The notes: a model not told the origin generated them from the letters alone. DNA of 64,000 nucleotides from Hyphomicrobiales bacterium (GCA_024244645.1 JAAEOH010000065.1:5882-69881), one strand, 5' to 3'. Shown: positions 18,906-36,389, numbered from the stretch's first letter. Translations and numbers: made by a program.

Positions 18906-18937
18906 CCGTTAATCCTCCCTTTTACCAGCTCTGAGCG

Positions 18938-19465: not shown

Positions 19466-19565
19466 TACACCTCGTCAGGTTCTCAGGATGAATTCCACAA
19501 CGATCAGGTCAGAATTCCTCACAAATATCAGCACAATAAACTACCAACACAGATCGCTGCTGTCT

Positions 19566-19579
19566 TTGATATACATCAA
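19566..19579. promoter_or_regulatory. Perfect FNR/FixK/DNR/NnrR-type box
   Basis: TTGAT-ATAC-ATCAA between divergent operons; TAGATT at 19602-19607 fits class II (-41.5) geometry. Confidence 0.8.
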
Positions 19580-19643
19580 GTGCGGCGTCCATGATTCAGG
19601 CTAGATTAAGGCCCGATTGGAGTTTGAATGGACGGTACCGTGC

Positions 19644-20066
19644 ATGAGCTCAATTAATTGCAATTTGCTCGCCGCAATGATTGTGGCAGTTGGAGTGTTC
19701 ACCGTAAACCCGGCGAGCGCTGAGGAGAAATCCGACCCGACAAGTGCCACCGCGTGGAGCGCCGGAAACGTATCCGGGGCCGGCAATTTCATGAGCTACT
19801 GCTTGCCTTGCCATGGTCCAGAGGGAAAAGGTGACGGCGTGCTGTCCGAAAGCCTTGATGTGAAACCCAGGGACCTTTCGAACGCTGGTTTCTTGGCGCC
19901 GAAGCCAGACGAATATCTATTCAAGGTCGTTAAGACTGGTGGCGCCGCAGTGGGCCTGACAGAGAACATGCCTCCCTTCGTGGACCAGTTGAGCGACGAG
20001 GAGATTGTCAACATCGTTGCCTACCTTAGAAAGGAGGTTTGCAAGTGTGAGTTCAAGAAGAACTAG
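19644..20066 (+). CDS. Periplasmic monoheme cytochrome c
   Basis: Signal peptide, CLPCH, distal Met in MPPF. Confidence 0.9.
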   Translation: MSSINCNLLAAMIVAVGVFTVNPASAEEKSDPTSATAWSAGNVSGAGNFMSYCLPCHGPEGKGDGVLSESLDVKPRDLSNAGFLAPKPDEYLFKVVKTGGAAVGLTENMPPFVDQLSDEEIVNIVAYLRKEVCKCEFKKN

Positions 20067-20100
20067 AGCATATGCCTTGATTGCGGACGGTTTTTGGTGA

Positions 20101-20892
20101 ATGTGGAAATTTGCCATGCGATCAAAGGTTGTGATATCCGGGCTTGTCCTGGCCTTACTGATGTTACCTCCATTGCTGGTGGAAGCGCGGGCAGACAACG
20201 GTCTGTCGATCGGCCGGATGCGGGTCATGATATGGCCCGAATACGACGATCCAAGCGTCCTGGTGGTTTATGACGGCCGCTTTACCGACGATTCGAAATT
20301 CCCCACCACCACTGATTTTCTTATCCCCAAAGGTGCGATCATCAACGATGTCTGCAGCCTGACGCCGGGTGGCCAACATATCTGCCAGCTTTACGATATC
20401 AGTGAGGGTGACGACCATGATACGGTGCACCTGTCTCTGCCGTTCTCGAATTTTTACGTCAGCTTTCATCTTGCCCCCGTCGACCTCGAAACCGCGAAAA
20501 GACAATTAAGATACGCAATTAGGGCCAATCATCCGATCGATAATATGGAGGTGGATATCCAGCAGCCTCTGCGTTCGACAGAATTTAGCGTTTCTCCTGC
20601 CGGCGGTGAGGCATCGAAACAAAAAGACTTCTATCACCTCACTTACGCCCTCGAGGACATCGAAAAGGGCGAGGACCGGGTTTTCAAGATCGACTATGTA
20701 AAGGAAACCAGGGAACCGTCGGTCGACGTCAAGTTTGCCTCCATGACCGGCCGCCGAGTCTGGGGCTCACCCTATGCGACCCAACGGAAAGTCAAGACCA
20801 TAGTCTACATCATCTTTGCAACCGGTGTCTTGATGGTATCGGCCGCCGCGCTCTGGATCATGATGGGAAGGCGAAGGAAAGGACCGGCGTGA
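20101..20892 (+). CDS. Exported, C-terminally anchored hypothetical protein
   Basis: Signal peptide, WPEYDDPSVLVVY, CSLTPGGQHIC, C-terminal TM helix. Confidence 0.75.
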   Translation: MWKFAMRSKVVISGLVLALLMLPPLLVEARADNGLSIGRMRVMIWPEYDDPSVLVVYDGRFTDDSKFPTTTDFLIPKGAIINDVCSLTPGGQHICQLYDISEGDDHDTVHLSLPFSNFYVSFHLAPVDLETAKRQLRYAIRANHPIDNMEVDIQQPLRSTEFSVSPAGGEASKQKDFYHLTYALEDIEKGEDRVFKIDYVKETREPSVDVKFASMTGRRVWGSPYATQRKVKTIVYIIFATGVLMVSAAALWIMMGRRRKGPA

Positions 20893-21326
20893 TGGCCGTG
20901 GTCATGGTTGAACCATTCAAGACACGGTACAGCCTTTTCGCGGCGCTGCTACTGACGGTTATGGTTCTTTTGCCCGATCGCGCTTTCGCGCTTACGGTCG
21001 GCGAGGTGGCGAGGGACCTCGCCTGCCCCTGCGAATGCCCGCTGATACTGGAAGACTGCAACATGACCTGTGGTCTCGATTGGAAGGAGGAAATCGGCGA
21101 AATGGTCAAGGCAGGCAAGTCCAAGGAGGAGATCATGACCTACTTCATCGCAACATATGGCGAAGAAGCGCGCCTCACCACACTGCAAAAGATCGATGGC
21201 AAGATTTTCCAGTACACCAGAGGGTTTGACACCACTGATTGGGCGATGTTGTGGACCGGTGTCGCATTCTGGGCGCTCACTATCATGGGTGGCATCTATT
21301 ATGGCGTCAGAAGATATTTCGCCTGA
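20889..21326 (+). CDS. CcmH/NrfF-like cytochrome c maturation protein
   Basis: EVARDLACPCECPLILEDCNMTC..IGEMVKAGKSKEEIMTYFIATYGE; TM helix. Confidence 0.7.
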   Translation: MMAVVMVEPFKTRYSLFAALLLTVMVLLPDRAFALTVGEVARDLACPCECPLILEDCNMTCGLDWKEEIGEMVKAGKSKEEIMTYFIATYGEEARLTTLQKIDGKIFQYTRGFDTTDWAMLWTGVAFWALTIMGGIYYGVRRYFA

Positions 21327-22182
21327 GTTCCCGTCTATAGCGAGACGGCTCTTACTGAGTTTCGCCATATTTGCGCTCATCTTGGGAATGGTCGCGTTTG
21401 TGGCCTTCGTCTACATGATCGAACCCGGCAACCGGCGGCAATATCTGGCGACCTCGGGCAAACTGCTGTTGCACAGATACAATCTTATTGACAAGCTTTC
21501 CGAAGCTGAAACCCGGCAACTTTATCTTTCCACCTGCACCAGGAAGTGCCACAGCAGGGACGTAGTCGAATTGACTCCCCGCACAGCACTGGAATGGGAG
21601 CAGATCGTCGCTCGCATGAAGAAGCAGGCGAAGGCCAACATTACCGGAACCCAGGCCCAGACGATTATCGAATATCTGCAAAGAATGTATCTTTCCAACG
21701 TGCCAACGATCTTGCCTGAGGCGACCATGCGTTTCGTTAAAAAGCATTTGTGGCGGCTGGATTTCGGTGAGAGCGATCTCTATTTCGACATCATCTATCT
21801 GCCCCAGGCGTACCGCCACCTGATGCCGTATTTGGCGTTCAGGAGCAAACCGCGGCACAGCGACGAGGCTTTGTTCATCGTCTACGTCAATACCCACACC
21901 GGCATCCTCCCGCGCTGGAACCTTGCCGACATCGCCACCATCAGGGTTGATGGAGACCGAGCAGCGAATGCCGCTTCCTGGCAGGTCCTTTATGAGGATG
22001 GGCAACAACACCACAAGCAGGGGATTTTGACCTTTCCGGCCGTCGAAGTCAGAGACGGCGAACCGGTCGATTCTCTGGAAATCGTAATCAAGCCACCGGC
22101 CATGCGGGAGCGGATTTTTCACTGGAATCTGCCGGTCCCGGAACACCCGCTGGCGGCCAGTACATCCGAAGAAAGGGGCTAG
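21301..22182 (+). CDS. Membrane-anchored putative cytochrome c (CX3CH) with a C-terminal extra domain
   Basis: TM helix, CTRKCH..WEQIVARM; probable start ATG 21301 (ORF track 21157). Confidence 0.6.
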   Translation: MASEDISPEFPSIARRLLLSFAIFALILGMVAFVAFVYMIEPGNRRQYLATSGKLLLHRYNLIDKLSEAETRQLYLSTCTRKCHSRDVVELTPRTALEWEQIVARMKKQAKANITGTQAQTIIEYLQRMYLSNVPTILPEATMRFVKKHLWRLDFGESDLYFDIIYLPQAYRHLMPYLAFRSKPRHSDEALFIVYVNTHTGILPRWNLADIATIRVDGDRAANAASWQVLYEDGQQHHKQGILTFPAVEVRDGEPVDSLEIVIKPPAMRERIFHWNLPVPEHPLAASTSEERG

Positions 22183-22185
22183 ACC

Positions 22186-22671
22186 GTGAATAAGCGTGCA
22201 CTGATCCGCTTACTTCTCATGCTTTTGTTGCCGTTGGCCCATGGCTGCGATGAAGAGATCAAGAAGGAATTTGCCGCAGACTTCACCCTGCAATTATTCG
22301 ATGGCCGGACATTCACCTTGAGCAAACACAAGGGTGAAGCTGTGGTCGTCAACTTCTTCGCGTCGTGGTGCATTCCATGTAGGGCCGAGGCGTCGGCGCT
22401 GGAGGCGGTCCATAGGGAATATTTCGAAAAGAAGGTGATCTTTCTGGGTATCGCTATCAAGGATACAGACACCGGCGCCCGGGGCTTTGTTAAAAAATAT
22501 GCGCTGAGCTTTCCCACGGGGCTCGATAAGGAACAAAAGCTCGGGCGCATCTTTGGCGTATATGGGCTTCCTACGACCGTCTTCATCGATGCAACTGGCT
22601 TTATCAACTACACCCACTCAGGGGCAGTGACAGGGGAACTGATCAAACATGAATTGGACAAATTACTTTAG
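22186..22671 (+). CDS. TlpA-like thiol-disulfide oxidoreductase
   Basis: NFFASWCIPC, GLPTTVFID; paralog of 18938-19465. Confidence 0.9.
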   Translation: MNKRALIRLLLMLLLPLAHGCDEEIKKEFAADFTLQLFDGRTFTLSKHKGEAVVVNFFASWCIPCRAEASALEAVHREYFEKKVIFLGIAIKDTDTGARGFVKKYALSFPTGLDKEQKLGRIFGVYGLPTTVFIDATGFINYTHSGAVTGELIKHELDKLL

Positions 22672-23170
22672 CTTTCCGGCTGCGGTAGTTTTCCTCACCC
22701 TATTGTTGACGGGGTGTTTGGAGGAAAACACGCTCCCGCTCAAGATTGGTGCAAAGGCTCCGCCCTCAACGTTGACCCTGCTCAACGGCGAGACCAGGGA
22801 AGTTCCGGATGATCTCGGGCAAGCTCAGGTCATCACCTTCATGTCCTCTTGGTGCCCATGTTCGAACCAATCCATTCCGCTCATGAAGGAGGCATTCGAA
22901 CAGTACAACAGCGGGCCGCAAAGCAAGATCGCATTCTTGATGATCGGCTTCCAGAGCCCGCGGAGCAAGTTCGAGGACATCGCCAGCAAGTGGCAGGTTC
23001 CATTTCCTGTGGGGTACGATGATGGCGACAAGATCGCTCGCGCGTACGGTATTACGGCGCCGCCAACAACCGTTTTCATCGATACGGAAGGCAATGTAAT
23101 AAGAGTTTTCTATGGCAATATCAAAGACATAGAGGAGGAATTCCTCCAGTGGGTGGGCGAGCTGTTGTGA
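22649..23170 (+). CDS. TlpA-like lipoprotein
   Basis: LLTGC lipobox, FMSSWCPCS (CxC variant), APPTTVFID. Confidence 0.8.
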   Translation: MNWTNYFSFPAAVVFLTLLLTGCLEENTLPLKIGAKAPPSTLTLLNGETREVPDDLGQAQVITFMSSWCPCSNQSIPLMKEAFEQYNSGPQSKIAFLMIGFQSPRSKFEDIASKWQVPFPVGYDDGDKIARAYGITAPPTTVFIDTEGNVIRVFYGNIKDIEEEFLQWVGELL

Positions 23171-23871
23171 TTGGGAACATCAACGCGGTGGGCAGCGGTT
23201 TTTCGTCCTTCTTTTCGATCTGGCAGGTCTGTATCCTGCAAATCTCGCCCTTTTTCCTAGCCTATGTTGTCGGTCTTTATTTTGCCGCAGATTCGCTGAA
23301 CGCCGAAGTCAGCCTTGGTGGCCGGGTGGTTCTTCCGGCGTTCTGGTTCACCCCTGGATTTGCCGTTGTGTATGCGTTGCTGACCATGACCGGACTGCCG
23401 ATTGGTCGCACGCTCGTTTTCAACCTTGGCACACTCGGGTTCATCGCCGGTACCTATATCCTTCTCGCCAGTCTGTTGATCGTGCTCCCGGGCCGGGTCG
23501 ATGTTGCCGGATTGTTGCGTCGGCCGCTTGCGCTGGCGGTCGTCTCACTGGTGCTTGGCAGCGCTTTTGCCCTCATCTACTCGCCATGCATCACACCCGC
23601 GCTATCGGAAATTATGGGCATGGCCGGCCGGCCCGAAACGGCGGTACGCGGCGGCACACTTGCCTTTTTTTACGCATTTGGCATCTGCTTGGGCCTAACG
23701 GTCACGGGTACCACTCTGGTTTTTCTACTTGCAAGGGTCGGTGTCGTGGAGCGCCATCCCGGGATCATCAAAATCGCCTCCAGTCTTGTCCTCGCCATTC
23801 TTGCCGCGCTCAACCTCAGTGGGACGATGATTTACTATAAAGCATTCTTTCTGGGTTTTCTGGTCGGATGA
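23149..23871 (+). CDS. ccdA: CcdA-type transmembrane electron transporter
   Basis: ISP..C near the N-terminus, YSPCITPAL, multiple TM helices. Confidence 0.75.
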   Translation: MGGRAVVIGNINAVGSGFSSFFSIWQVCILQISPFFLAYVVGLYFAADSLNAEVSLGGRVVLPAFWFTPGFAVVYALLTMTGLPIGRTLVFNLGTLGFIAGTYILLASLLIVLPGRVDVAGLLRRPLALAVVSLVLGSAFALIYSPCITPALSEIMGMAGRPETAVRGGTLAFFYAFGICLGLTVTGTTLVFLLARVGVVERHPGIIKIASSLVLAILAALNLSGTMIYYKAFFLGFLVG

Positions 23872-24083
23872 GCAGGCGCGCGAACAAGCTTCCGCCTGGT
23901 TTCAAAAAACAAGCATTCGGCGTTGTCCTCGCCGTCCTCGGTATCATCGATACCGTTATGAACCTCATAACCGGCATCACGCTGGACGGCTTTTTCCTGT
24001 TTCTGATTGGCGCCGGCATTGTGCTTTTCGTTGTCGGGACCATACAACGGCGAAAGCACCGCTACCAGGCCACCTGCGGATAG
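23868..24083 (+). CDS. Small two-TM hypothetical protein
   Basis: ATGA coupling to ccdA; two hydrophobic helices. Confidence 0.6.
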   Translation: MSRRANKLPPGFKKQAFGVVLAVLGIIDTVMNLITGITLDGFFLFLIGAGIVLFVVGTIQRRKHRYQATCG

Positions 24084-25222
24084 AACCAGTGCTCGACCAT
24101 CCACTGGCTATCGTCCACCAGGGGTGTGGTATTCCGATCCTTGAAGGCCTTCGGAGGTGTACCCATTCGGGCTCCCATTGAGACGTTGTGGCATGAGTTG
24201 CAGCCCAGGGTCGGGGATTCGCGAGTTTCCACGTAAAGCAGGCCGAAGGGCATGGCGGCAACGAAGACGATCACGAAGGAAACCACCACACCGGCCAGCT
24301 TTATCTTACCGTGTTTTCTACCAGGTCGCGACAGGAGGCTGCTATATGGCCAGCTGCCGATTTCGGCGTCCCCCCTCCTTTTATTGCTGCCTCTGAAAAA
24401 GAAGGGCAGCAAGATCAGTATGATCAGCACGGTCAGCGGCAGACCGATACCAAGGAACGCCGCCATGGGGGCTTCGAAACTCATGAAAGGGCGCAGCAAG
24501 AACAGAATATACCATTCAGGTGCCGGTAAATATGTACCCTCGAGCGGCATCGGGATAACGTCTGGATCTTCTGTCGGCATGGGAATGTAAATCGCCAGCG
24601 CGGCGATAGCGACGAAGAAGGGCACACTTATCACGGCGTGCTTTGCAATGTATTTGCCGATACCGGCCTTTCTCTTGCGCAACACCGCAAGGATGTGGAA
24701 GTCGATGAGGATGTAAGTGATCACCGGCAGGATCACCGCGTGGGCGACAAAATTCCGACTAAGCGTAAATGCGTCAATCAGGAACGCTTTCAATACCGGT
24801 CCGGCGAGCGGCACGCTGCCCAGATAGTTGGGCACCATCTCCATGAACCAATAGGCCTTCCATTCCCAGGGCAGGATGAAACCGGTAACCAGCAGAGCCA
24901 AGATTGGCGGTATCAGTAGCCCGCCGGTGAGCCAGGAAATTCTGCACTGATAGTTCAGGAAGTCCTTTCTGAACAGACTTCTTGCGACGTGCACGACAAT
25001 CGCGGCGAAAATAAAAAATGCCAGCCAGCGGTGACTATCCCTAATCCAGGCACCAATGTTTAAGCCGCGATAAAGGCTTTGGACGCTGGCATATGCCTGC
25101 TGCAAATCGGGCTGATAGAACAGGGCCAAAAAAATGCCGGTCAGAAATTGCAGGATGAGCAGAATAACCGCGACACCGCCAAAATAGTGACGCCAGTGAT
25201 AGCGCTCTATTTTTGTTTTCAT
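24062..25222 (-). CDS. Fused cytochrome b (b6 + subunit IV-like) with a C-terminal c-heme
   Basis: Four heme-b His (DSHRW, VHVAR, AHAVILP, DFHIL), PEWY, CNSCH. Confidence 0.85.
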   Translation of the reverse strand: MKTKIERYHWRHYFGGVAVILLILQFLTGIFLALFYQPDLQQAYASVQSLYRGLNIGAWIRDSHRWLAFFIFAAIVVHVARSLFRKDFLNYQCRISWLTGGLLIPPILALLVTGFILPWEWKAYWFMEMVPNYLGSVPLAGPVLKAFLIDAFTLSRNFVAHAVILPVITYILIDFHILAVLRKRKAGIGKYIAKHAVISVPFFVAIAALAIYIPMPTEDPDVIPMPLEGTYLPAPEWYILFLLRPFMSFEAPMAAFLGIGLPLTVLIILILLPFFFRGSNKRRGDAEIGSWPYSSLLSRPGRKHGKIKLAGVVVSFVIVFVAAMPFGLLYVETRESPTLGCNSCHNVSMGARMGTPPKAFKDRNTTPLVDDSQWMVEHWFYPQVAW

Positions 25223-25225
25223 CGA

Positions 25226-26530
25226 TTACTCTCCATCTTTTTGCAGCAACACAAAACCTTCACCCATTTGATCCCCTTCAACGCGATAGAGATGCGCACG
25301 TTTGATCGGTGTTCCGTTTGCTGCCCAGCGACTCACGCCGGTTACCCCTTCGACTTCTTTCAGATTGACCAGAGCATCTCTAACCGTCTGGCTTTGCAGC
25401 GAGTCGGTAGCCTCAAGCGCCCGGGAAAGAAGGCCGAAGGCGTCATAAGCCAGGGCTGTAAATCTGTCGGGAACGGCGTCATTTCTGGCTATTTGCTCCG
25501 CCACGAAATCCTGCACCAGACGTGAGGGGCGATCGGGCGCGAAAGTGGTGTACAGCAAAGTGCCACGCGTAGCTTGCCCGCCCTGCTTGAGGAATTGTTC
25601 ACTGAACAGGTCTTCGCCGCCGATCAGGGGCAGCATGAGACCGTCATCCCTGGCGGCCTGTGCCAGTTGCGCAGCCTCCTGGGCCTCGCCCGTGAAGATG
25701 ATGGCCTGCAACCCCTCCGACCCGGCCTTCAGAGCCGTCACGACCTTGCCAATGTCTGTTTTCCCCGAAAACGTTTCATATGTGTCGGCCTCGACCAGAA
25801 TCTTGCCGCCGTGCCTTGGCACTGCTTTTTTGAACTCCGAAGCGATGCTCAGCGAGTAGTCGTAAGACGATGAGGTGACCAGGGCGAAATTCCTGTAACC
25901 CAGCTCGTTGGCAGCGTAACCGAGCATTTCGTCAATGGCGATTTCGTCAGGCAGGGAAAAGTGAAAGATGTAGCTGCCGCTTCTGCTGATTTTTCGTCTC
26001 GTCCCGATGGATATGAATACAGTTTGCGATTGGCTGGCCAGGTGGGTCGGCACGAATGTCGACCAGCCGGTCGGAGAAGAAAATATCGCCACGACGTTCT
26101 TTTCGATCAGCGCCGAGGCGATATCGGCGGTTTGTCCGGACCCGCCGCTGTTGTCGTGGTGAATGACTTCGATCTTCTGGCCACGCAAACCGCCCTGGGC
26201 ATTAAAATGGTCGGCCGCCATGACAATACCGGCAAGTACGGCCAGACCAAATTTGGCCTCAGCGCCGGTTTCCGGGCCGATCACCCCGACGATCAGCGCC
26301 CGTTCCTTTTCTTTTTCTTTCCTGCGCAATGACTTTGCTGCCGTGCCTTGTGGAGTGGCCTGGGTGGAGGCCAGCCATTCTGGATTGCCGGCCTTTAGCG
26401 GAGGAGGCTCCCCGCTGCGATTGCTCAGGGTCTCGAAGAAGACAACGGCAAAGACACCTGCGATGCCAATCAGGGAAATCAGAACTAGCTTGAAACGCAT
26501 CTGGCGAAACACTGGACCGCTAGCCTCCAT
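25226..26530 (-). CDS. Membrane-anchored branched-chain amino acid-type binding protein (LivK/Peripla_BP_6 fold)
   Basis: VGVIGPETG..GIVMAADHFNAQGGLRGQKIEV; AYDAF; EGVTG. Confidence 0.85.
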   Translation of the reverse strand: MEASGPVFRQMRFKLVLISLIGIAGVFAVVFFETLSNRSGEPPPLKAGNPEWLASTQATPQGTAAKSLRRKEKEKERALIVGVIGPETGAEAKFGLAVLAGIVMAADHFNAQGGLRGQKIEVIHHDNSGGSGQTADIASALIEKNVVAIFSSPTGWSTFVPTHLASQSQTVFISIGTRRKISRSGSYIFHFSLPDEIAIDEMLGYAANELGYRNFALVTSSSYDYSLSIASEFKKAVPRHGGKILVEADTYETFSGKTDIGKVVTALKAGSEGLQAIIFTGEAQEAAQLAQAARDDGLMLPLIGGEDLFSEQFLKQGGQATRGTLLYTTFAPDRPSRLVQDFVAEQIARNDAVPDRFTALAYDAFGLLSRALEATDSLQSQTVRDALVNLKEVEGVTGVSRWAANGTPIKRAHLYRVEGDQMGEGFVLLQKDGE

Positions 26531-27470
26531 CCTTCCACCGGTCCTTGCCGGCGAGGAGGTTCTTGACCAGTTTCTCCTCGAGCAGAATGACGTTTTGAGC
26601 CCGGTTGCTTTTGGCGAAGTAGCCCCGCCGCTTCCTGTCCCTGCTACCGATGCGCAGAACCTGGGCTTCTTTCTTCCCTTTTTCCTCGACGGTTACGGTG
26701 ACGAAGGGAGCTTCCAGGCCGTAACGGGTTAATTCCGCAGGACCTTCATCGATGAATGCCTTCACCGGTGTGTCCTTGATTGCATAAAGGGTCTCCAGCA
26801 CAGAGGCTTGATCGGCCTGCACCTGCTCCGGCTGAAGCATGTCCCAACGGCCGCGCTCGTGCACGATCACCACTTTGTCCCCGGTCCGTCGTGCAATCTC
26901 AATACGGCTCAGTTTGAGCGGATCGTAGGCCAGTGTTGACTTGTCCCGAAGGGCATAGACGCTAGCATCAGCCTCCCTGCGGACATCCGAATGGATGCGG
27001 TAGACCGCCGCCTCGCCCTTGAACTTGCCATAGGTCACATTGAGGGTTGGTCCCTTGTTGCCGAATTGCAGCGTTGTGACGTCATTACCAGTTCTAAAGG
27101 TGATTTCGAGTTCCGGTTCGGCCAACCCCAGTTCCACCAGCTTTGCCGAATCTGGATTGTTGAACAAAACCGCGTCCTTGCGCGATTTGACGATGTTTTT
27201 CAGCATCTTGGCGATGCCCTCGTCGTCGCCTCTTGCCAGCAGGGGTTGGTTCAGCCACCAACCTTCCTCGTTCCTGGTGACGCGCACCCGTATTCCGTTC
27301 TTATCTGTCCTGATCCAGAATTCCGCCACGTCGTCGATCTCGAAAGGTAACAGTTTAAGGTTTGCTTCCGCGATCTGTTCGTGTTCCCCGACCCTGTCTT
27401 CGATCAGCAGAAAGGCGCCAAACAGCCCGGCCAGGGCGATAAACCAAAAAATGGTTTTCTTGAACAGCAT
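26520..27470 (-). CDS. DUF4340-like periplasmic protein
   Basis: N-terminal TM, duplicated W-x-P..YGL..P..TV repeat; follows the GldG-like gene; start ATG 27470. Confidence 0.7.
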   Translation of the reverse strand: MLFKKTIFWFIALAGLFGAFLLIEDRVGEHEQIAEANLKLLPFEIDDVAEFWIRTDKNGIRVRVTRNEEGWWLNQPLLARGDDEGIAKMLKNIVKSRKDAVLFNNPDSAKLVELGLAEPELEITFRTGNDVTTLQFGNKGPTLNVTYGKFKGEAAVYRIHSDVRREADASVYALRDKSTLAYDPLKLSRIEIARRTGDKVVIVHERGRWDMLQPEQVQADQASVLETLYAIKDTPVKAFIDEGPAELTRYGLEAPFVTVTVEEKGKKEAQVLRIGSRDRKRRGYFAKSNRAQNVILLEEKLVKNLLAGKDRWKDGG

Positions 27471-29089
27471 CAAGACCTCCACCTTCGACGTCCGACCACG
27501 CCGACGCCGATCGCCAGAATCAGGGTCGGTGCAAGGATCACACAAAGCCAGAAAACGAAATTGCTTTGCGTATCGGTCAACGTCAGCGGTGTCAGTTCGG
27601 TTGGCTTCTTGCGCACCGAGACCAAGGCTGTCTCCTCGGCCAGCCAGCCGAACAGGTTGAGAAAGAAGTCCTTATTGCCCATCAGGTTGAGATAGGCGTT
27701 ACCGGCGAAGTCTGAATCACCGACCACGATAATTCGGCCCCAGCGGTTGACGCCTTCCTCGAGGTCGGCCTCCGGGGTCGGCATGCCTATTTCGTTCTGA
27801 TCGTTGGTCCTGGTAAGCGGTAGATCTCCGTCGGCCTTGACCTTGATGACGCTGACAGCGGCCAGGTTGATCGGCCCTCGCTGGTCCTCGGCCGGATTGA
27901 ACTCGATCTCCTCTTCGTCAAGCGTGCCTTTGTTCTTTGCCCAACTGCTGGACCCGGTTTTAGCCAGATTGTACTTGCCCTCAGCGGGCTCTTCCTGAAC
28001 TTCGATGGAGCGGGCAACCGGAAAGAAAGTAACGTAACTGAAGTCTCGACCGATCATATGTTTCTGGTTGTATTCCATGACCACCGACGTCAGGTAGTTG
28101 GCGCCAAGCATTTTGCTTTGCTTATCGATGATGATGTCGTTGTTGACCTTGAATCCGTAACCCTGCAGATGTTTGGAAATCTCGGGCGCCAGCAGCGGGT
28201 CGAGCAGAAACAGGACACTGCCGCCGCCGTCGACGTAGCGCCTGATCTTTTCCAGCTCGACCGGCAGGATGTCCTTTTGGGGCCCGGCAATAACAAGAAT
28301 GGCAGCATCTTCTGGCACGCGCTCCTCATTGACGAGCAGGAGTTCGCGAACTTTGTAGGTCTCCTTTTCAATCGCTTCTCTGGCCAATTTGTAGCCCGCC
28401 TTCTGTTCGTCCTGGAGACCCTTTTCACCGTGGCCCTTGAGGAAATATACGGTCTTGACCTCATCGCTTAAGACCTTGAGCAAGGCATTGGTAACCTTTT
28501 CCTCTGACTCGAAACCGACAGCCTCCTGATTGTCACCGGAACGGATCAAGGTCGTCCTATAGGAAGTGACACCGTACTTTGCGGTCTCGATAGGGCGTTT
28601 GTCGGGATCGACGAACCAAAAATTGAACTTCGGGGTGTGGTAGGAATACTCCTTGAGGAGATCGTGCATCGCCTGTCTGGATCTTTCGTCGCTTCTGTAA
28701 AAGGCAACGGCCTCGACACCGTTTTCCAAAGACTTCAAAATCTTCACGGTCTGCTGAGAGAGTGAATATCTACCGGTCTCGGTCAGGTCGACCCGCGCCT
28801 TGTAACGGACCGACATTACGCCGATCAAGCTGATGATGACCACGAATATGGCAATCATCACCGTGACGTTAGCGCCGTGCCTGGTCGACCGTTTGGAGAT
28901 GAAAGCTCCAATTTCAGAGAAATTGACATAGAAGAATATCAGCAGCGACAACAGGCCGCCCCACACCAATGAAAGCGGAATGACGCTGAATTCGCGCGAA
29001 ATGGCGTAAACGACGACTCCGGCGGCGACACTCGCCATGCCGACCAGCCCGAGGATAAAGAGTAATCTCCTGCCTGTCATCACCGCCAC
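27470..29089 (-). CDS. GldG-like ABC auxiliary membrane protein
   Basis: DLTETGRYSLSQQT, VYFLKGHGEK, GRIIVVGDSDF, N- and C-terminal TM helices. Confidence 0.85.
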   Translation of the reverse strand: MAVMTGRRLLFILGLVGMASVAAGVVVYAISREFSVIPLSLVWGGLLSLLIFFYVNFSEIGAFISKRSTRHGANVTVMIAIFVVIISLIGVMSVRYKARVDLTETGRYSLSQQTVKILKSLENGVEAVAFYRSDERSRQAMHDLLKEYSYHTPKFNFWFVDPDKRPIETAKYGVTSYRTTLIRSGDNQEAVGFESEEKVTNALLKVLSDEVKTVYFLKGHGEKGLQDEQKAGYKLAREAIEKETYKVRELLLVNEERVPEDAAILVIAGPQKDILPVELEKIRRYVDGGGSVLFLLDPLLAPEISKHLQGYGFKVNNDIIIDKQSKMLGANYLTSVVMEYNQKHMIGRDFSYVTFFPVARSIEVQEEPAEGKYNLAKTGSSSWAKNKGTLDEEEIEFNPAEDQRGPINLAAVSVIKVKADGDLPLTRTNDQNEIGMPTPEADLEEGVNRWGRIIVVGDSDFAGNAYLNLMGNKDFFLNLFGWLAEETALVSVRKKPTELTPLTLTDTQSNFVFWLCVILAPTLILAIGVGVVGRRRWRS

Positions 29090-29862
29090 CTTTTGGATTC
29101 AAGCGACCGCAGGGTCAGGAACAGGAACAGGACGGTAAAAATGACGAAGTAGATGATGTCTTCGGTATCGACAACGCCCTTGGCCAGGCTTTCGAGATGT
29201 TCGTTGATGGCGAGGTAAGAGATTATCTGGCCGAACGCGGCCGAAACAAACATCGTCGAATAGCTCATCAGCCAGAAGAAGAAGAGGATACTGATCGAAA
29301 GCGAGCCGGCGATAATCTGGTTCTCGGTCAGTGACGAGGTGAAGATGCCCAGTGAAATGAACGCCGCCCCCAACAAAAACAACCCGGCATACCCGGTAAG
29401 AATCGGCACAACTTCCGGCTCCCCCAAATTGATGAGCAGAAGCGGATAACTGATTGTAGAAAGCAGCATCGCTACAAACACCGTATAACAAGCCAGAAAC
29501 TTGCCAATAACGACCTCCGCGTCTCTTACCGGATACGTAAGAAGCAGTTCCATCGTGCCCGACTTCTTTTCATCGGCCAGCAGCTTCATTGTCAACAGTG
29601 GCAGCATCAGCAGCATGACGATACTGATATTTCCGAATAGCGGTCGCACAACGGTTTCGTTGACGTTCAGCAGGTTGTATTGCTTGGCAACCATGGGATT
29701 GGCCTGGGCCTGGAAACTCAGGATCGAAAAGCTTGCCAGTAGGTTGAAAAAGAGATAACCCGTCGCCGCCATAAAGATGGCGATGACCGCGTAGGCGATA
29801 AAAGAGCCAAAATAGGATTTGACGTCTTTCTTGAACACCAGCCCTATGTTCCTCAGATTCAC
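29080..29862 (-). CDS. ABC-2 permease (GldF-like)
   Basis: LTMKLLADEKKSGTMELLLTYP..GKFLA; SSLTENQIIA. Confidence 0.9.
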   Translation of the reverse strand: MNLRNIGLVFKKDVKSYFGSFIAYAVIAIFMAATGYLFFNLLASFSILSFQAQANPMVAKQYNLLNVNETVVRPLFGNISIVMLLMLPLLTMKLLADEKKSGTMELLLTYPVRDAEVVIGKFLACYTVFVAMLLSTISYPLLLINLGEPEVVPILTGYAGLFLLGAAFISLGIFTSSLTENQIIAGSLSISILFFFWLMSYSTMFVSAAFGQIISYLAINEHLESLAKGVVDTEDIIYFVIFTVLFLFLTLRSLESKRWR

Positions 29863-30800
29863 GCGCTGTCCTCTTCCGTCACGAGTTGAATGAAGACATC
29901 CTCCAAACTGGTTTCCACGGCACGCATCTCATTCAGTTGCCAGTTGTTGCTCACGACGACGGGCAGGATGCTTTGTTCGCCATCCGCCCCCCTCGCCATC
30001 TCAACGACAAATTCGTTGCAGCCGTTGGCCGCCGGTGTCGACTCGACTTTTCTTACCCCCTTGATCTCGCCGAGCGCCTTGGCGATCTGATCCAGATCAC
30101 CGGTGATCCGAAGAAAGAGCCTCGACGAGTCGCGCAGGTTGGCGGTCAAGTTGTCAGGCTTGTCCACCACAACCAGCTTGCCTTTGTTGATAATGACCAC
30201 CCGTTCGCACACCATGCTCACTTCGGGCAGGATATGAGTGCTGAGCACGATAGTGCGCTGCCCCGCCAGCTCGGTGATCAATTTGCGAATCTCCTTGATC
30301 TGCCTGGGATCGAGGCCGTTGGTGGGTTCGTCGAGAATAAGGATCTCTGGGTCGTTGACCAACGCTTGCGCCAATCCCACCCGCTGCCTGTAGCCCTTGG
30401 AAAGTTCGCCGATCGGCCGGCCGACAACCGCATCGAGGCCGCAATCGCCCATCGTTCTGGTCACGGTTTGCTTGACCGCCTTACTCTCCACGCCCTTTAC
30501 GCCGGCAACAAAGGCCAGGTAATCGTCGACAACCATGTCCCTGTAAAGAGGCACGCTTTCAGGCAGATAGCCGATCCGTTTGCGGACTTCGAAGGAATTC
30601 TCAAAGCAGTCGTAGCCAGCGACAACGGCCTTTCCAGAAGTGGCAGGAAAGAAACAGGTGAGGATGCGCATGGTGGTGGTTTTTCCAGCGCCGTTGGGGC
30701 CGAGAAACCCGATGGTCTCGCCTTTTTGCGCCGAAAAGGTTATGCCGTCGATGCCAAGATGCGAACCGTAGCTCTTGGTCAGGTTTTCTACTTCGATCAT
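29859..30800 (-). CDS. ABC ATPase (GldA-like)
   Basis: GPNGAGKTT, LSKGYRQR, ILDEPT. Confidence 0.93.
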   Translation of the reverse strand: MIEVENLTKSYGSHLGIDGITFSAQKGETIGFLGPNGAGKTTTMRILTCFFPATSGKAVVAGYDCFENSFEVRKRIGYLPESVPLYRDMVVDDYLAFVAGVKGVESKAVKQTVTRTMGDCGLDAVVGRPIGELSKGYRQRVGLAQALVNDPEILILDEPTNGLDPRQIKEIRKLITELAGQRTIVLSTHILPEVSMVCERVVIINKGKLVVVDKPDNLTANLRDSSRLFLRITGDLDQIAKALGEIKGVRKVESTPAANGCNEFVVEMARGADGEQSILPVVVSNNWQLNEMRAVETSLEDVFIQLVTEEDSA

Positions 30801-31342
30801 GATCGCTTGTCACTCGTTCCGAGATCGTAGCGTCTGTAGGAGCCCGGTGCGCGCGTGTTCTTGAGCGCGTCTTCGATCGGTCTCTGTTCAACCGGCGTCG
30901 CCAGCAGATCGATCAGTGCCTGATCCCTGTTGAGAAGCTTTCGCAGATCTTCTTCCGGCCAATCGCTCTCCCAATTGCCGATCAAAGCGTTCCAGGCTTG
31001 GGTAATGGCAACGATTTCCGCATCGCTGAACTGCCGAAGATTGAGGTCCTTGTTCCGGGCGTTGGTAATTTCCGTATACTTTTTCATAAAGTGCGTCACG
31101 ACAATAAAAGGCGGACCGCAGCGTGAACAGTACTTGAGCATTTTTTCTTCGCTGTGACAGGTCGAGCATCGTTCATAGGCGAGCGCAACCGCCTCGTCCG
31201 GGGTATAGACGATATATCCCAACGCCTTGGCTTCCTTGATGAATTCCCTGCCAACGGGATTGGGAACCAAGAAAATCAAGGCAAGGACGCCCAGAAAGAC
31301 AACAGGCGATGCCGCCGTGATAATCCAGCACTTCCTCATCAC
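30797..31342 (-). CDS. Membrane-anchored cytochrome c
   Basis: N-terminal TM, CSTCH followed by CSRC. Confidence 0.75.
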   Translation of the reverse strand: MMRKCWIITAASPVVFLGVLALIFLVPNPVGREFIKEAKALGYIVYTPDEAVALAYERCSTCHSEEKMLKYCSRCGPPFIVVTHFMKKYTEITNARNKDLNLRQFSDAEIVAITQAWNALIGNWESDWPEEDLRKLLNRDQALIDLLATPVEQRPIEDALKNTRAPGSYRRYDLGTSDKRS

Positions 31343-31485: not shown

Positions 31486-32430
31486 TCAAAATCCCTTCTT
31501 GACCTTTGCATCGACTTCTTCAGGCTGCTTGCGCAAGCCGCCTCTAACGTAACCACCGCCCTTAAGCGCGCCTTCGCCACGCCCGGCTAGCGATAATTCG
31601 GTTTCCTCCTGGGCATCGTTGAAGTCGTCACTCTGGTTCGCCGTCAATGCATCAATATCGCCGGCAATCGGTTTGAAAGTCGTTTTCGGGTTCAGATATT
31701 CCTCGACTGTCTTCGGCGGTTTGGTGTCCGCCATCATCCGAATCCAGGCGACGACGTTCCAAATGTCCTGATCCTGCAGCAAATTGCCCCAAGCCGGCAT
31801 CGACGAAGACAGGTAGACTTCTTCACCACCGCCTTTGATCACTGTGAACAGCTGCAGATTAGACTTCTTGTTCATGTAGTCACCGTCGGTCAGGATACGC
31901 GGACGCGGCTCGATCTCCGAAGCGCTCGGCCCATCACCCTGCAAGCCCCAGCCGTGGCAGGCGATGCAATAGACGTAGTACCACTGTTTACCTTCATTGG
32001 GATCCGCACCCGGGACCAAGGTGGTTTTGAACGCCGGGGACCAATTGTTGGTCCATTGGTTGTAGACCGATTCACCCTCAGCCGGTTTTTCGACACGGTC
32101 CCACAATTCGGTTTTGCCGCCCTTACCTCCGTAGCCACTATCGCCCCGCGAGGGGGTGGTACCCTCGGTCCTTTTGCCGACGCCGGTCAAATAGTCGAAA
32201 GGAGCGACGCCATAGGTACTACCGGACACGCCCGAACTCATCAGCTCGGCTTCATCATCATAGGCCGCCGCGGCCGCTTCCAGTTCTGCTTCGGTGCGAA
32301 CCGGGCACACCACTTTGGTGCCGTCATAAAGCCTGCACCTTTCGGTCTCCGCGAACGATCCCGAATATGTCGACGCCGCAATTGCGGCACCCAACGCCAC
32401 CGCCCATTTGATCCTATTTTTTTGCTGCAT
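31486..32430 (-). CDS. Periplasmic monoheme cytochrome c with a long N-terminal extension
   Basis: CIACH, MPAWG; first 29 aa identical to the NosZ-like protein. Confidence 0.88.
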   Translation of the reverse strand: MQQKNRIKWAVALGAAIAASTYSGSFAETERCRLYDGTKVVCPVRTEAELEAAAAAYDDEAELMSSGVSGSTYGVAPFDYLTGVGKRTEGTTPSRGDSGYGGKGGKTELWDRVEKPAEGESVYNQWTNNWSPAFKTTLVPGADPNEGKQWYYVYCIACHGWGLQGDGPSASEIEPRPRILTDGDYMNKKSNLQLFTVIKGGGEEVYLSSSMPAWGNLLQDQDIWNVVAWIRMMADTKPPKTVEEYLNPKTTFKPIAGDIDALTANQSDDFNDAQEETELSLAGRGEGALKGGGYVRGGLRKQPEEVDAKVKKGF

Positions 32431-32672
32431 TCTTTAGTTCTCCCTGTATATCACGATCAGCTTCCAGAATTGGTCAGCTGGCTCGCCGTTTGGCTAATCA
32501 AGGGCAGCGGGATTTGGTGCATGGACGCACTTCCCACTATAGCTAGAACGATTGTCAGCATAATTCTGTTTTCAGCCGAGCAACTTGACTTAAATCAATC
32601 CACGCCTCACGCGTGCTCTCGCGCGACGCTATGTCGCATGGACCACGGTCATCCGCGATACCAACGAGCAGC
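32345..32672 (-). repeat. Direct repeat copy 1 (promoter + RBS + signal-peptide codons)
   Basis: 328 bp, 3 mismatches seen versus 38827-39154. Confidence 0.95.
32585..32598. promoter_or_regulatory. FNR-type box
   Basis: TTGAC-TTAA-ATCAA; TATGCT -10 on the minus strand (32562-32557) at class II spacing. Confidence 0.7.
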
Positions 32673-32764: not shown

Positions 32765-33781
32765 CTATTTCAGCCACAGCTCCAGAATATCTTCGCCATG
32801 CAGTTTGTTGAGTGTGTTCTGCGAAATATCAGTGAACCAGATGTCGCCATTACAACCTACCGCGATGTCGTTTGGCTCTGTTTTTCCCAGCGCAACCTTT
32901 ACCTCCAGGAGTCTCCTGGAAACCGGGTTCATGGCTCCAAGCTTGCCTACATGGCCTAGCGTAAACAGGACATTTCCAAGCTGATCGATGTCCAATCCCT
33001 CGACGACACCCCGGACGGGGAGAACAAAGCCCTCAAATTGCCGCTTCGAAGGGTTGAACATCATCAATTTGGCGTTTCTGCGGCCGCCAAACCAGATCAG
33101 CCCGTTGCGATCGATAACAATATCCTTGGGCACCAGGAACGGTTCCGGGAAGTCAAACTCCTCGAATTTTCCGCTGAACGAATCGAACGAAGCCAATTTA
33201 TTCCCTTGGGATTCGATGAACCATATGATGCCCTTAGGGCTGACCGCGAGACCTGTCGGTTGGCTGTTGGACGTGGGGATTGGATATTCCAAGAAGCTCT
33301 CGGTCAGGGGATCAAATCTTCCGAGATTGTTGCCGAAGAACTCAGTGAACCAGATAACACCGTTATTATCGCTGCCGATCCGGCGTGGAACGCTGTCGAT
33401 GGTCGGGACTTCATACTCCTTGAAAGATTTGTCGGCCGGATCGAAGCGGCCTAATTGATTGGCGTCCTGCTCGAGGAACCAAACCACACCGGCGCTGTCT
33501 ATGGTGAGGTCGGAGGGGAAGCTCCTGTGAGTCGGGATGCCGTGTTCAGTGAAGGCCTTTTTGTCTGGGTCGAATTTAGTCAGTTGGTTTGCGTTGGCTT
33601 CCAGGACCCAGATAATGCAGTTTGGGCCGATGGTGATCCTGGACGGCAACGCGTTGGGCGTCGGCACCTCATAGGTTTCGACGTTCCAGCCAAGCTCGCT
33701 GGCAGCCCCAAACGTGAAAGCAAGCAGGCTGGCGAGGGCCGCGTGAGCGATAGCTTTGCTCCTCATTGCCCGGTCCGCCAC
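32765..33781 (-). CDS. Exported Vgb (virginiamycin B lyase)-fold beta-propeller
   Basis: Signal peptide; repeated P..I....G.IWF.E...N.LGRFDP....F.EY.IP blades. Confidence 0.85.
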   Translation of the reverse strand: MADRAMRSKAIAHAALASLLAFTFGAASELGWNVETYEVPTPNALPSRITIGPNCIIWVLEANANQLTKFDPDKKAFTEHGIPTHRSFPSDLTIDSAGVVWFLEQDANQLGRFDPADKSFKEYEVPTIDSVPRRIGSDNNGVIWFTEFFGNNLGRFDPLTESFLEYPIPTSNSQPTGLAVSPKGIIWFIESQGNKLASFDSFSGKFEEFDFPEPFLVPKDIVIDRNGLIWFGGRRNAKLMMFNPSKRQFEGFVLPVRGVVEGLDIDQLGNVLFTLGHVGKLGAMNPVSRRLLEVKVALGKTEPNDIAVGCNGDIWFTDISQNTLNKLHGEDILELWLK

Positions 33782-35052
33782 CGCCGGAATATGAACAGTA
33801 CCGCAAAGAGTGATGCGCCGGAGACGATCAGTAGGGCCGCAACGGCGTAGCCTGTGAGAGAAGTCGAATATTCCTCCGGAATAGAGTCTGAAGCGGCGGT
33901 CGTTTTTACATCGACTGTGGCTGCGGCCATGGCTGCTCGTGCCTTGGTCATGGAAAGCACCCCCAACCTTTTTGCCTCGGTGCCGGTTTCAGAAAACCAA
34001 AGGCGATCACGTTTATCGTCGATTGCCATGTCTCCAGGCAGACTGGCATAGGTCGGGATGTCGAATTCCTTGAACTGCGCCGAAGCGGGATCGAAGATGC
34101 CGACTTTGTTGCCCATATACTCCAGAAACCAGATTTCGCCGCTACCACTGGCCGCGATGGCATTAGGAAGGCCTCCGGCGGTCGGAATCAATGCCTCATA
34201 AAACCTTTCCCCTTTGGGATAAAACACGCTGAGACGGTTGGTTCGCAGCTCGACAAACCAGACCCTGCCCGCTCCATCCACGGTCAGCGTTTCCGGATTA
34301 GCAAAGCGTGTTGGAATTTCATATTCGCTGAATGCGGTGCTGGCAGGAACAAACTTGCCGATCTTATTGGCGTTGGCCTCGGCAAACCAGATGGCATCGC
34401 TGCCGTCGATAGCAATCCCCTTGGGATAGCTGTGCAGCGTGGGAATCGGGTATCCTTGCAAACCGGACCCACCTGGCTCGAAGCTGTAGATCTTGTTTTC
34501 TTTAGGAGACAGAAACCAAACCAGCCCCTTTCGGTCGACTACCAGGTCATCCGGCGAAACATTTCCCTGGTTCGCACCGATCTCGCGAACCGCGTCCATA
34601 TCTGCAAGGAGATATCTCTTAAATGAGCCGGTGGCCGGGTCGAACTGACCGAGGAATCCGGTACCATCATCGGAATTGGCCCATCGACGAACACTGAACC
34701 AGACGCTTCCGCCGGGCGCAAGGGTGATGCGTGATGGCCCAACGTTGCCCCAGTCGGAAGGCAGGGGGTGAGCCTCGAACGTCTTTCTCTCGGGGTCGAA
34801 CATGACGATATTCTTCCCGACTTTCTCGGCAAACCAGACGTTTCCGCTGGGGCCCACCGCTATGGAGTGCGGGGAACTGATTGCGTCTGGGACCACGAAT
34901 TCCTGGATCACCGGATCTGTCGTCTGGGCGTCAGCCTGGCCCCCTAACGGCCCTGCGAGCAGTAAAATGCAGAAAAGCAAACCTGCCGCCCAGGGCCCCG
35001 GATCGGTCCGTGCCGCAAAAAAATGCCTCCGAAGGATGCGACAGATTCGCAT
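33763..35052 (-). CDS. Exported Vgb-fold beta-propeller with a C-terminal TM anchor
   Basis: Same blade repeats; signal peptide from ATG 35052; C-terminal hydrophobic helix followed by RRWR. Confidence 0.85.
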   Translation of the reverse strand: MRICRILRRHFFAARTDPGPWAAGLLFCILLLAGPLGGQADAQTTDPVIQEFVVPDAISSPHSIAVGPSGNVWFAEKVGKNIVMFDPERKTFEAHPLPSDWGNVGPSRITLAPGGSVWFSVRRWANSDDGTGFLGQFDPATGSFKRYLLADMDAVREIGANQGNVSPDDLVVDRKGLVWFLSPKENKIYSFEPGGSGLQGYPIPTLHSYPKGIAIDGSDAIWFAEANANKIGKFVPASTAFSEYEIPTRFANPETLTVDGAGRVWFVELRTNRLSVFYPKGERFYEALIPTAGGLPNAIAASGSGEIWFLEYMGNKVGIFDPASAQFKEFDIPTYASLPGDMAIDDKRDRLWFSETGTEAKRLGVLSMTKARAAMAAATVDVKTTAASDSIPEEYSTSLTGYAVAALLIVSGASLFAVLFIFRRWRTGQ

Positions 35053-35057
35053 GGGAT

Positions 35058-35735
35058 CTACCACGTCATCGTCGGTTCGTAGTAATGCCTCAATTGCCAG
35101 TTCGCGTCCTTGTACGATTGCGCTCCATCCGTCGCGCCGGCCCGGTAACCGCCGACGTTGATCTGTAACTGCCGGGATCCCAGATAGTATTCGGCCATAT
35201 CGGCAGGCGGCAACGCCTGCCTTACTCCCATCATCGGGTTGTGGCATGAAGCGCAACCGGTGGTCTTGGCTGGATAGCCAGTGCCGATCACGCTGGCCGT
35301 CATGCTCACCCAAATTGCCAGGGCGCCGATACCCATCAGCAACTTCACTCCAGTCGACAATCTTTTGCCGGCGGTCTTCTTGCGGCCGAAGACAAACGGC
35401 ATAGCGAGCCCCGCCAGAAGAATGCCGACAGGGGCCCAGAAAGTTCCCAGCTGCCGCCATATGGAGGCCTCGCCGGTCAGGTACCAGAACGGCTGGAAGA
35501 CGAAGATAAGGTACCACTCAGGGGCTGGAACATACTCCCCTTCGGTGGGAAGCGGCGGCATGTTGACGTCCGTCGGTACGCGATAAAAATAAGCCAAACC
35601 GATAACCAGGGCGATGGTGATGGTGCTGACGGCTACGGTCTTTAGCGCGTGGCGCGGCCAGAATCGGTGGAATTCCTGCGGATACGGTGGATCGTATTTT
35701 GGATCACGAATGAGGTCCGGTTGCTCGTCGGTCAT
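35058..35735 (-). CDS. Cytochrome b subunit IV (PetD/QcrC-like) fused to a c-heme
   Basis: FWPRH, PAPEWY, CASCH. Confidence 0.85.
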   Translation of the reverse strand: MTDEQPDLIRDPKYDPPYPQEFHRFWPRHALKTVAVSTITIALVIGLAYFYRVPTDVNMPPLPTEGEYVPAPEWYLIFVFQPFWYLTGEASIWRQLGTFWAPVGILLAGLAMPFVFGRKKTAGKRLSTGVKLLMGIGALAIWVSMTASVIGTGYPAKTTGCASCHNPMMGVRQALPPADMAEYYLGSRQLQINVGGYRAGATDGAQSYKDANWQLRHYYEPTMTW

Positions 35736-35756: not shown

Positions 35757-36389
35757 CTATAATGGTTCGGATATGCCGTGCTTTTTCACCATCTTGAAAT
35801 GGAAACTGAGGAGCACGAATAGTATCAGCGGCAAAATCACGATATGCGTTATGAAGCTCCGGTAGATGGTAAAGGTGTTGAGCACGAAACGTTCCATGTA
35901 CTCGCCGATAAGTGGCCAGGTAGCGACATAGTCGACCCAGATTGCATAGGACCAATAGGCACGCCAGTCCCAGGGCAGGACAATGCCGCTGAGTACAAAC
36001 AGGAAAACCACCAGGAACTGGAGCACGCCGGAAATCCAGTTGAGTTCCCGGGGATTGTGGTACGCCTTGCGATAAAACACAGTGACCAGGTGGGTGAAAA
36101 CCGCGGCCAGTAACAGTGTCGCGCCCCACCTGTGCATGTTCCTGGCCAGCCAGCCGAGTGGGACCTCGTTGCTCATTAGATCGATACTGTTGAGGGCCTC
36201 TTTGGGATCCGGCGTATAGAAGAACAGCATGAAGACGCCAGTGATCACCTGAAGTATGATGATCAGCAGGGAAATGCCACCAAAACAGTAGAAGAAAGAA
36301 TGCGCCGGCACCGCTTGTGCCTTCTTTGCGTCAGTCCATTGCCTGATGCCGGTTCTTGCGTCCAACCAGTCATAGATTTTCGCTATCAT
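35757..36389 (-). CDS. Cytochrome b6-like (PetB/QcrB) subunit
   Basis: FYCFGG (heme ci Cys), NMHRW, THL, THIVILP, SFHF. Confidence 0.9.
   Translation of the reverse strand: MIAKIYDWLDARTGIRQWTDAKKAQAVPAHSFFYCFGGISLLIIILQVITGVFMLFFYTPDPKEALNSIDLMSNEVPLGWLARNMHRWGATLLLAAVFTHLVTVFYRKAYHNPRELNWISGVLQFLVVFLFVLSGIVLPWDWRAYWSYAIWVDYVATWPLIGEYMERFVLNTFTIYRSFITHIVILPLILFVLLSFHFKMVKKHGISEPL

Follow-up and report, generated by a model that had tools for sequence, protein, structure and literature searches.

Assembly of the CuZ centre of nitrous oxide (N2O) reductase depends upon the nosDFYL genes, which are essential for this step in all enzymes studied. Clade III N2O reductases, reported to be abundant environmental N2O sinks, do without NosDFYL. 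The type of gene cluster that carries L-nosZ, the gene for the lactonase-type enzyme of this clade, has been published, and ATP-binding cassette (ABC) components of clade III clusters have already been proposed as stand-ins for NosDFY (PMC13685413; PMC13477213), among them a MacB-type transporter put forward as a NosDFY analogue (He et al. 2025, as reported in PMC13685413); NosF/NosY-like pairs have also been noted in clade III metagenome-assembled genomes (MAGs) (PMC13477213). Here we describe a four-gene ABC module encoded near L-nosZ in a 64,000-nucleotide stretch of DNA from a Hyphomicrobiales bacterium (GCA_024244645.1, JAAEOH010000065.1:5882-69881), which we refer to as the window and within which positions are counted from the first letter. 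A preliminary description of the window had read this module as a GldA/F/G plus DUF4340 system in the place of NosDFY. We find that the module is a hallmark of one branch of L-NosZ, not of L-NosZ overall, and that it is very probably a dedicated accessory of the L-NosZ system, a role specific to this "long" (~585 amino acids, aa) clade III branch.

The four open reading frames (ORFs), which lie on the minus strand and reproduce the extent of 26520-30800 given in the preliminary description, and the presumed client enzyme are the following.

29859-30800, minus strand: ABC ATPase of 313 aa, GldA-like/DrrA-like with a C-terminal DrrA-type domain (PF00005, 96 bits)
29080-29862, minus strand: ABC-2 permease of 260 aa and six transmembrane (TM) segments, NosY/GldF class (PF12698, PF12679)
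27470-29089, minus strand: GldG-like auxiliary protein of 539 aa (PF09822, PF23357)
26520-27470, minus strand: DUF4340 protein of 316 aa from its corrected start (PF14238)
37161-38912, minus strand: L-NosZ, the presumed client (NF052460, 803.6 bits against a cut-off of 700)

The NosZ-like protein of the window is indeed a clade III lactonase-type enzyme: it falls far under the cut-offs of the NosZ models for clades I and II and carries a CuA-type motif, CQHFCGPLHLEM. With regard to the module itself, the best NCBIfam model for the ATPase is GldA (TIGR03522, 315.6 bits against a cut-off of 402.6), and the protein keeps intact motifs for Walker A, the signature, Walker B and the H-loop (GPNGAGKT, LSKGYRQR, ILILDEP and TH). 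In sequence comparisons the ATPase matches ABCA nucleotide-binding domains (NBDs) at 217-220 bits and NosF at 121 bits, with many other proteins outscoring NosF. The permease, which has 104 near-invariant positions among 17 orthologues, reaches 161.5 bits with GldF (TIGR03518; cut-off 288.5) and 40.3 bits with PF12679, the Pfam family of NosY (cut-off 27.2). Its single sequence match in the PDB is NosY itself (7o0y_D), a weak one (E 0.079) that runs through a common E..GT.ELLLTYP motif, and judged from sequence the relationship between the two is one of family, not of orthology. The GldG-like protein, with 142 near-invariant positions among orthologues, scores well with ABC_transp_aux (PF09822, 98.7 bits against 34.7) and DUF7088 (PF23357, 46.9 bits against 27.8) but reaches merely 82.4 bits with GldG (TIGR03521; cut-off 389.85), and the DUF4340 protein matches PF14238 at 111.1 bits (Pfam gathering threshold 25). 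Since the first three proteins all score under the NCBIfam equivalog cut-offs, we write "GldA/F/G-like"; the resemblance claimed in the earlier naming stands, whereas identity with GldA/F/G does not. Both a true GldAFG system and true NosFY orthologues were considered and rejected, with scores under cut-offs and partners missing.

Translational coupling of the four genes, which had been claimed from the outset, is borne out by their overlapping junctions. The ATPase and permease genes overlap at GTGA, the permease and GldG-like genes overlap by 10 nucleotides (nt), or meet at TGATG if an alternative start is used, and the GldG-like and DUF4340 genes meet at TGATG. The DUF4340 gene starts at the ATG at 27470, not at an upstream TTG at 27545: alignment with orthologues begins at residue ~25, and the ATG overlaps the GldG-like stop in the sequence GGAGG-N5-TGATG. 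The ABC-2/GldG-like/DUF4340 set is present in a single copy in the window's genome.

The distribution of the module was examined across genomes. A scan of one genome per species gave 48 loci in 46 genomes with L-NosZ at 67-95% identity, and in these genomes matches to the GldG-like protein were bimodal: orthologues (48-84% identity, >440 bits) were found in 40 of the 46 genomes and were well separated from paralogues (24-31%, <200 bits). These loci span Alpha-, Beta-, Gamma- and Zetaproteobacteria, Magnetococcales, a "Delta" MAG and Nitrospiria, with the nearest in Rhodospirillaceae-like MAGs. Orthologue and L-nosZ lie on one contig, at most 18 kb apart, in 24 genomes, and the remaining cases are mostly short contigs. 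In a sample of 401 genomes from the same taxonomic order, the orthologue and L-NosZ occur in the identical two genomes and nowhere else (Fisher 1.2e-5); in a phylum sample, also of 401 genomes, 10 of 11 genomes with L-NosZ and none of the other 390 carry the orthologue (Fisher 4e-19), where both counts ignore kinship and so are not phylogenetically independent, though at least five families are covered. The DUF4340 orthologues likewise form a closed group, with 117 relatives at 43% identity or more among 5.8 billion proteins and the next at 30%, and every metagenome contig located through the GldG-like protein has nos-type neighbours where its upstream extent suffices. Finally, distances between L-NosZ proteins co-vary with those between GldG-like proteins (Mantel r 0.86, with 0 of 5000 permutations as high), a correlation that partly reflects shared species history. 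Co-occurrence of the ABC subfamily with L-NosZ, suggested earlier as a check, is thus strong within this branch but was not seen within 10 kb of L-nosZ in the more distant ones sampled. As its close relatives are confined to L-NosZ genomes, the module is probably a dedicated helper that replaces NosDFY.

Gene order tells the same association in another way. In more than 20 loci, wherever the contig suffices, the order is L-NosZ, a 201-aa protein, a split cytochrome b, two beta-propeller proteins, a cytochrome c, a 181-aa protein (u181), ATPase, permease, GldG-like protein and DUF4340 protein, an arrangement seen in Alpha- and Gammaproteobacteria, Magnetococcales, the "Delta" MAG and metagenome contigs. 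Variants are found elsewhere: a Nitrospiria locus (L041) has the entire unit, from the cytochrome c to a periplasmic-binding-protein (PBP) gene, upstream of L-nosZ; Magnetococcales have the PBP and a cytochrome b gene placed ahead of u181; Burkholderiales carry the module on the opposite strand at a distance of 7-8 kb; and in Gallionellales and Zetaproteobacteria it is 14-17 kb away. This reshuffling bears on whether the module is simply a passenger, taken up a single time into a mobile nos island and co-inherited since without a functional link. The nos-type island of the window (~18000-40000) has a G+C content of 0.52-0.57 as compared to 0.58-0.61 in its flanks and a DDE transposase fragment (39231-39566) beside its end, which together suggest acquisition as an island, and the patchy distribution of L-NosZ resembles that produced by horizontal gene transfer. 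However, the order has been reshuffled often (same or opposite strand, upstream, 7-17 kb off or on other contigs), yet the module is retained in ~87% of carriers, has never been seen without L-NosZ, and is well conserved in sequence, as the near-invariant positions of the GldG-like protein attest. That the linkage survives such rearrangement makes capture without function highly improbable.

We next consider whether the module takes the position of NosDFY. This is supported by the window's genome, which is 99% complete: the NosD model TIGR04247 gives a best match of 34 bits there (cut-off 300), the NosD beta-helix family PF05048 gives no more than weak matches elsewhere, there is no match to the NosL family PF05573, and no clade I or clade II NosZ was found. 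More broadly, canonical NosD is present in just 6 of 48 genomes with this type of L-NosZ. NosD is found in two MAGs without the module, a weakly complementary pattern on which we do not rely because the L-nosZ contigs concerned are 1.5-3.8 kb long and may be mis-binned. The window's own genome fits the idea of replacement; the distant L-NosZ branches sampled have no such module within 10 kb of L-nosZ. In the literature we searched, where He et al. 2025 is represented through papers that cite it, we did not find the full GldG-like/DUF4340 module identified, nor its exclusive distribution with one L-NosZ branch, nor a report that non-homologous systems take its place in other branches.

How might the module serve L-NosZ? 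The mechanism that we favour, and for which we see the case as evenly balanced, is a NosDFY-like mechanical device in which ATP moves a periplasmic scaffold for loading of the copper centre. The four proteins would form one membrane complex, built upon a cytoplasmic ATPase dimer and the six-helix ABC-2 permease of the NosY/GldF class. The GldG-like subunit would contribute a large periplasmic scaffold domain tethered by TM helices at each end, and the DUF4340 subunit would be periplasmic and anchored at its N terminus. Transcription would start from a copy of the nosZ promoter, jointly with that of the cytochrome c and of the small membrane protein with CxxCH and CxxC motifs. Most likely no solute would be carried; as presumed for a NosDFY-like way of working, ATP binding and hydrolysis in the cytoplasm would move a periplasmic platform, which would hold or hand over the apo-enzyme, or its partners (propellers and copper chaperones, for example the SCO1 protein encoded nearby), while the copper centres are loaded. 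L-NosZ would be the client, and the step served would be insertion of copper or sulfide.

A number of observations weigh against this reading. Within the branch, the module is clearly unlinked from nosZ in four genomes (G022, G029, G030 and G041), and L-NosZ MAGs without an orthologue exist (G004, G007, G018, G033 and G034, with a 38% match only in G042), though MAG incompleteness may account for the missing orthologues. Beyond the branch, we reached distant L-NosZ proteins through a representative library and a second homologue search and looked for the module within 10 kb of the gene, grouping the loci by identity to the window's L-NosZ.

52-55% identity, three loci, one of them titled Nitrospinae: no ABC module within 10 kb
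42-46% identity, Desulfovibrio-type, two loci (L067 6686-11343; L069 12988-17656): MacB/FtsX-type ABC system
42% identity, Chloroflexi fusion protein, one locus: no ABC genes within 10 kb
35-38% identity, Nitrospirota and others, three loci: L-nosZ followed by cytochromes c plus a cytochrome-bd-like subunit, ABC genes absent within 10 kb

No GldA/F/G-like plus DUF4340 module was found within 10 kb of L-nosZ in any distant branch sampled, from which it follows that the module is not a universal requirement of L-NosZ. The branch at 52-55% identity retains the 201-aa-like protein, the split cytochrome b and both propellers; it thus keeps the two propellers, not the ABC module, as partners. The propellers may therefore be the more fundamental substitutes for NosD and NosL, and the ABC motor may be an addition in the branch of the window. 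In the Desulfovibrio-type loci, L-nosZ is followed by a MacB_PCD/FtsX permease with an ABC ATPase, then by a 134-aa protein with a BNR/Sortilin propeller, and after these by a second FtsX permease, an arrangement that fits the MacB-type transporter as PMC13685413 relays it. That an ABC system with a propeller occupies the equivalent place in a sister branch suggests a recurrent need for an ATP-driven periplasmic helper.

Two further observations can be recorded. Following the second propeller, where the window has the cytochrome c and the ABC module, the loci at 52-55% identity encode a large protein: in two of them (L072 16211-19108 and L073 16154-19039) a translationally coupled protein of ~960 aa with spermine-synthase-like and tetratricopeptide-repeat (TPR) regions, and in the third (L070 14896-16809) a 637-aa protein with a faint MFS_1 match only. 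A 1139-aa fusion protein (P0240) has first 550 residues that are 58% identical to the window's L-NosZ, joined to a long C-terminal part of no recognised kind.

Structure and family context add to the points against. The four-gene architecture also occurs in unrelated contexts, for example in an operon around P0238, so that nothing in the family as such links it to copper. A hydrophobic-segment scan of the GldG-like protein gives three N-terminal TM segments and one C-terminal TM segment. Because overall confidence in its AlphaFold2 model is low (mean predicted local distance difference test, pLDDT, 62.5), we use domain-level fold matches alone. In this moderate-confidence model, the periplasmic part is predicted to combine a Cys-free thioredoxin-like domain with a GIFT/ABC_transp_aux domain (Foldseek matches to IFT52, E 1.6e-10, and to OST48-like, ThuA-like and thioredoxin proteins), and it looks like a non-catalytic scaffold, not a metal carrier. 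The DUF4340 model (pLDDT 91.4) has an N-terminal TM helix and two repeated alpha/beta periplasmic domains, for which no fold match was found in the PDB (best E 0.013, TM-score <0.17). Neither the GldG-like nor the DUF4340 orthologues have a conserved Cys or a Met- or His-rich motif; near-invariant candidates exist (M141, H220 and H344 in the GldG-like protein, H185 in the DUF4340 protein), with nothing persuasive as ligands. Given the absence within 10 kb of L-nosZ in distant branches, the lack of a Cys/Met site and the scaffold folds, we infer a part in copper-centre assembly and do not assert it.

Alternatively, the module may be a true exporter, and not a mechanical platform, that takes a small molecule or polymer needed by the L-NosZ respiratory module across, or out of, the inner membrane, for instance sulfur species for the CuZ sulfide or an envelope lipid or glycan that anchors a periplasmic complex. 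Export is the usual task of ABC-2 systems related to DrrA and ABCA, and the ATPase is nearer to ABCA NBDs than to NosF; GIFT, OST48 and ThuA-like folds are associated with glycan handling; other subfamilies of the module sit in unrelated contexts; and the supply of sulfur to CuZ is unexplained even for NosDFY (PMC13685413). Nevertheless, in none of the clusters that we have seen do genes for the biosynthesis of a lipid, a glycan or a sulfur carrier lie beside the module, and strict confinement to L-NosZ genomes is hard to reconcile with general envelope export. We therefore regard export as unlikely and retain the mechanical platform as the favoured mechanism.

The genes around the module, which define the surroundings in which it would act, are listed below.

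38824-39123 and 32342-32641, minus strand: two copies of a promoter/leader/signal-peptide cassette, a 300-nt direct repeat, 99% identical
36386-36991, minus strand: 201-aa membrane protein
35757-36389 and 35058-35735, minus strand: split cytochrome b in two parts, CxxCH in the second part
32765-35052, minus strand: two beta-propeller proteins of the Vgb-lyase fold, core L-NosZ partners (PF24684, 152 and 145 bits)
32765-33781, minus strand: the second of these propellers (PF24684)
31486-32430, minus strand: 314-aa cytochrome c, heading the ABC-containing unit (PF13442, PF00034)
30797-31342, minus strand: u181, a 181-aa protein with an N-terminal membrane anchor, no Pfam family
25226-26530, minus strand: membrane-anchored Peripla_BP_6 protein (PF13458, 163 bits), overlapping the DUF4340 stop
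24062-25222, minus strand: 386-aa cytochrome b with a C-terminal CxxCH (CNSCH), last gene of the run (PF00033)
18243-18869, minus strand: SCO1/SenC copper chaperone at the island edge (PF02630, 179.5 bits)

The module lies in a common run with cytochrome genes, as had been claimed, with the co-oriented 314-aa cytochrome c upstream and the 386-aa cytochrome b downstream. From u181 to this last cytochrome b, each junction is overlapping or a 3-nt gap; the u181 and ATPase genes share an ATGA overlap and the DUF4340 and Peripla_BP_6 genes overlap by 11 nt. The Peripla_BP_6 gene is conserved downstream of DUF4340 in seven further loci (L054, L056-L059, L061 and L063). One cassette copy precedes L-nosZ and the other the cytochrome c gene with which the ABC-containing unit opens, and the two proteins share an identical 29-residue signal peptide, MQQKNRIKWAVALGAAIAASTYSGSFAET; in promoter and terminator scans, counts were not above those of shuffled sequence. 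In u181, residues C59, C62, H63, C72, C75 and M86 (CxxCH, CxxCGPP and a Met) are invariant among 22 orthologues. The protein is found in most ABC-module clusters; it is coupled to the ATPase gene in the window but follows the propellers in Burkholderiales-type clusters. The first propeller is contained in a long ORF (33763-35517, minus strand) that overlaps the preceding gene in another frame, and its probable start is not 35517 but a Met at 35052, which immediately precedes a segment resembling a signal anchor.

These surroundings also bear upon the possibility that the module serves the quinol-oxidising cytochrome b/c units and the CxxCH/CxxC protein, through assembly, haem insertion or stabilisation, and not the copper enzyme. 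The module is flanked by, and coupled to, u181 on one side and the PBP/cytochrome b-c pair on the other; in Magnetococcales and Chromatiales, the ABC genes are accompanied by cytochrome b genes and are sometimes apart from nosZ; and a set of CcmH, thioredoxin and CcdA genes is conserved near these clusters. By contrast, the ABC genes of Burkholderiales-type clusters stand apart from u181 and come without the PBP/cytochrome b pair, and the branch at 52-55% identity has a split cytochrome b without the ABC module. A service to the cytochromes is accordingly quite improbable in our estimation, and L-NosZ remains the client that we prefer.

The SCO1/SenC protein is a possible copper donor. Its homologues adjoin L-nosZ or the ABC module in seven loci (L010, L011, L013, L024, L046, L059 and L063), and SCO1 is often directly upstream of L-nosZ in gammaproteobacterial loci. 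In the window, it belongs to a set at 18243-23871 that also encodes a TlpA-like thioredoxin, a small cytochrome c, a 263-aa protein of no recognised family, a CcmH-like protein, a 341-aa protein, two further thioredoxin-like proteins and CcdA; the greater part of this set is found again beside L-nosZ in nine loci (L015, L016, L021, L036, L044, L045, L047, L056 and L059). At the other end of the island, just past the transposase fragment, genes at 40549-46171 on the minus strand encode a 2-oxoacid:ferredoxin oxidoreductase alpha/beta pair and two flavoproteins of the pyridine-nucleotide-disulfide oxidoreductase type.

Never seen without this branch of L-NosZ and containing a permease of the NosY class, the module is a concrete and genetically testable candidate for the missing copper-assembly step. 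It would also provide the first functional handle on a widespread orphan family of GldG/DUF4340 ABC systems. That the ABC systems near L-nosZ are non-homologous from branch to branch, or lacking nearby, matters for the heterologous expression of L-NosZ as well as for the prediction of N2O-reducing capacity from genomes.

Among described systems, the NosDFY(L) machinery of clades I and II (Pseudomonas stutzeri; PDB 7O0Y series) is alike in its ABC-2 architecture, its place in the nosZ cluster, the large periplasmic partner on its ABC motor, and the permease family PF12679 together with the E..GT..LLLTYP motif common with NosY; the window's genome has no NosDFY otherwise. The module differs in having neither a NosD beta-helix nor NosL, its partners being the DUF4340 protein and a GldG-like scaffold of predicted thioredoxin-like and GIFT domains, and in an ATPase that is not specifically NosF-like; it has no recognisable copper site. 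Three of the four proteins have their best-scoring named families in GldA/GldF/GldG of Flavobacterium johnsoniae, whose GldG has the same domain set (ABC_transp_aux); we know of no substrate assigned to this gliding-motility ABC system. Here the module differs in its scores under the equivalog cut-offs, its origin in a proteobacterium and not in Bacteroidota, its extra DUF4340 gene and its respiratory gene context, as opposed to one of motility or type IX secretion. The Desulfovibrio-type MacB/FtsX system with its BNR/Sortilin propeller shares a place in the L-nosZ cluster after the cytochrome b genes and likewise combines an ABC system that has a periplasmic domain with beta-propeller proteins; its permease fold is unrelated (FtsX/MacB_PCD as compared to ABC-2), it has no GldG-like or DUF4340 subunit, and its L-NosZ is just 42-46% identical to that of the window. 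It is conceivable, though we think it doubtful, that ABC-2/GldG-like/DUF4340 modules in general act as periplasmic platforms for assembly, driven by ATP and with one client enzyme for each subfamily. The L-NosZ-linked subfamily would then be the first whose client can be identified and, along with NosDFY and the MacB-type system, a third independent recruitment of an ABC system for N2O-reductase maturation. Generic operons of the same four genes, such as that around P0238, are alike in having identical gene order and domains. They differ in being no more than ~30% identical and in their unrelated contexts, and the L-NosZ-linked subfamily is the only one with a tie to a single periplasmic enzyme that can be identified.

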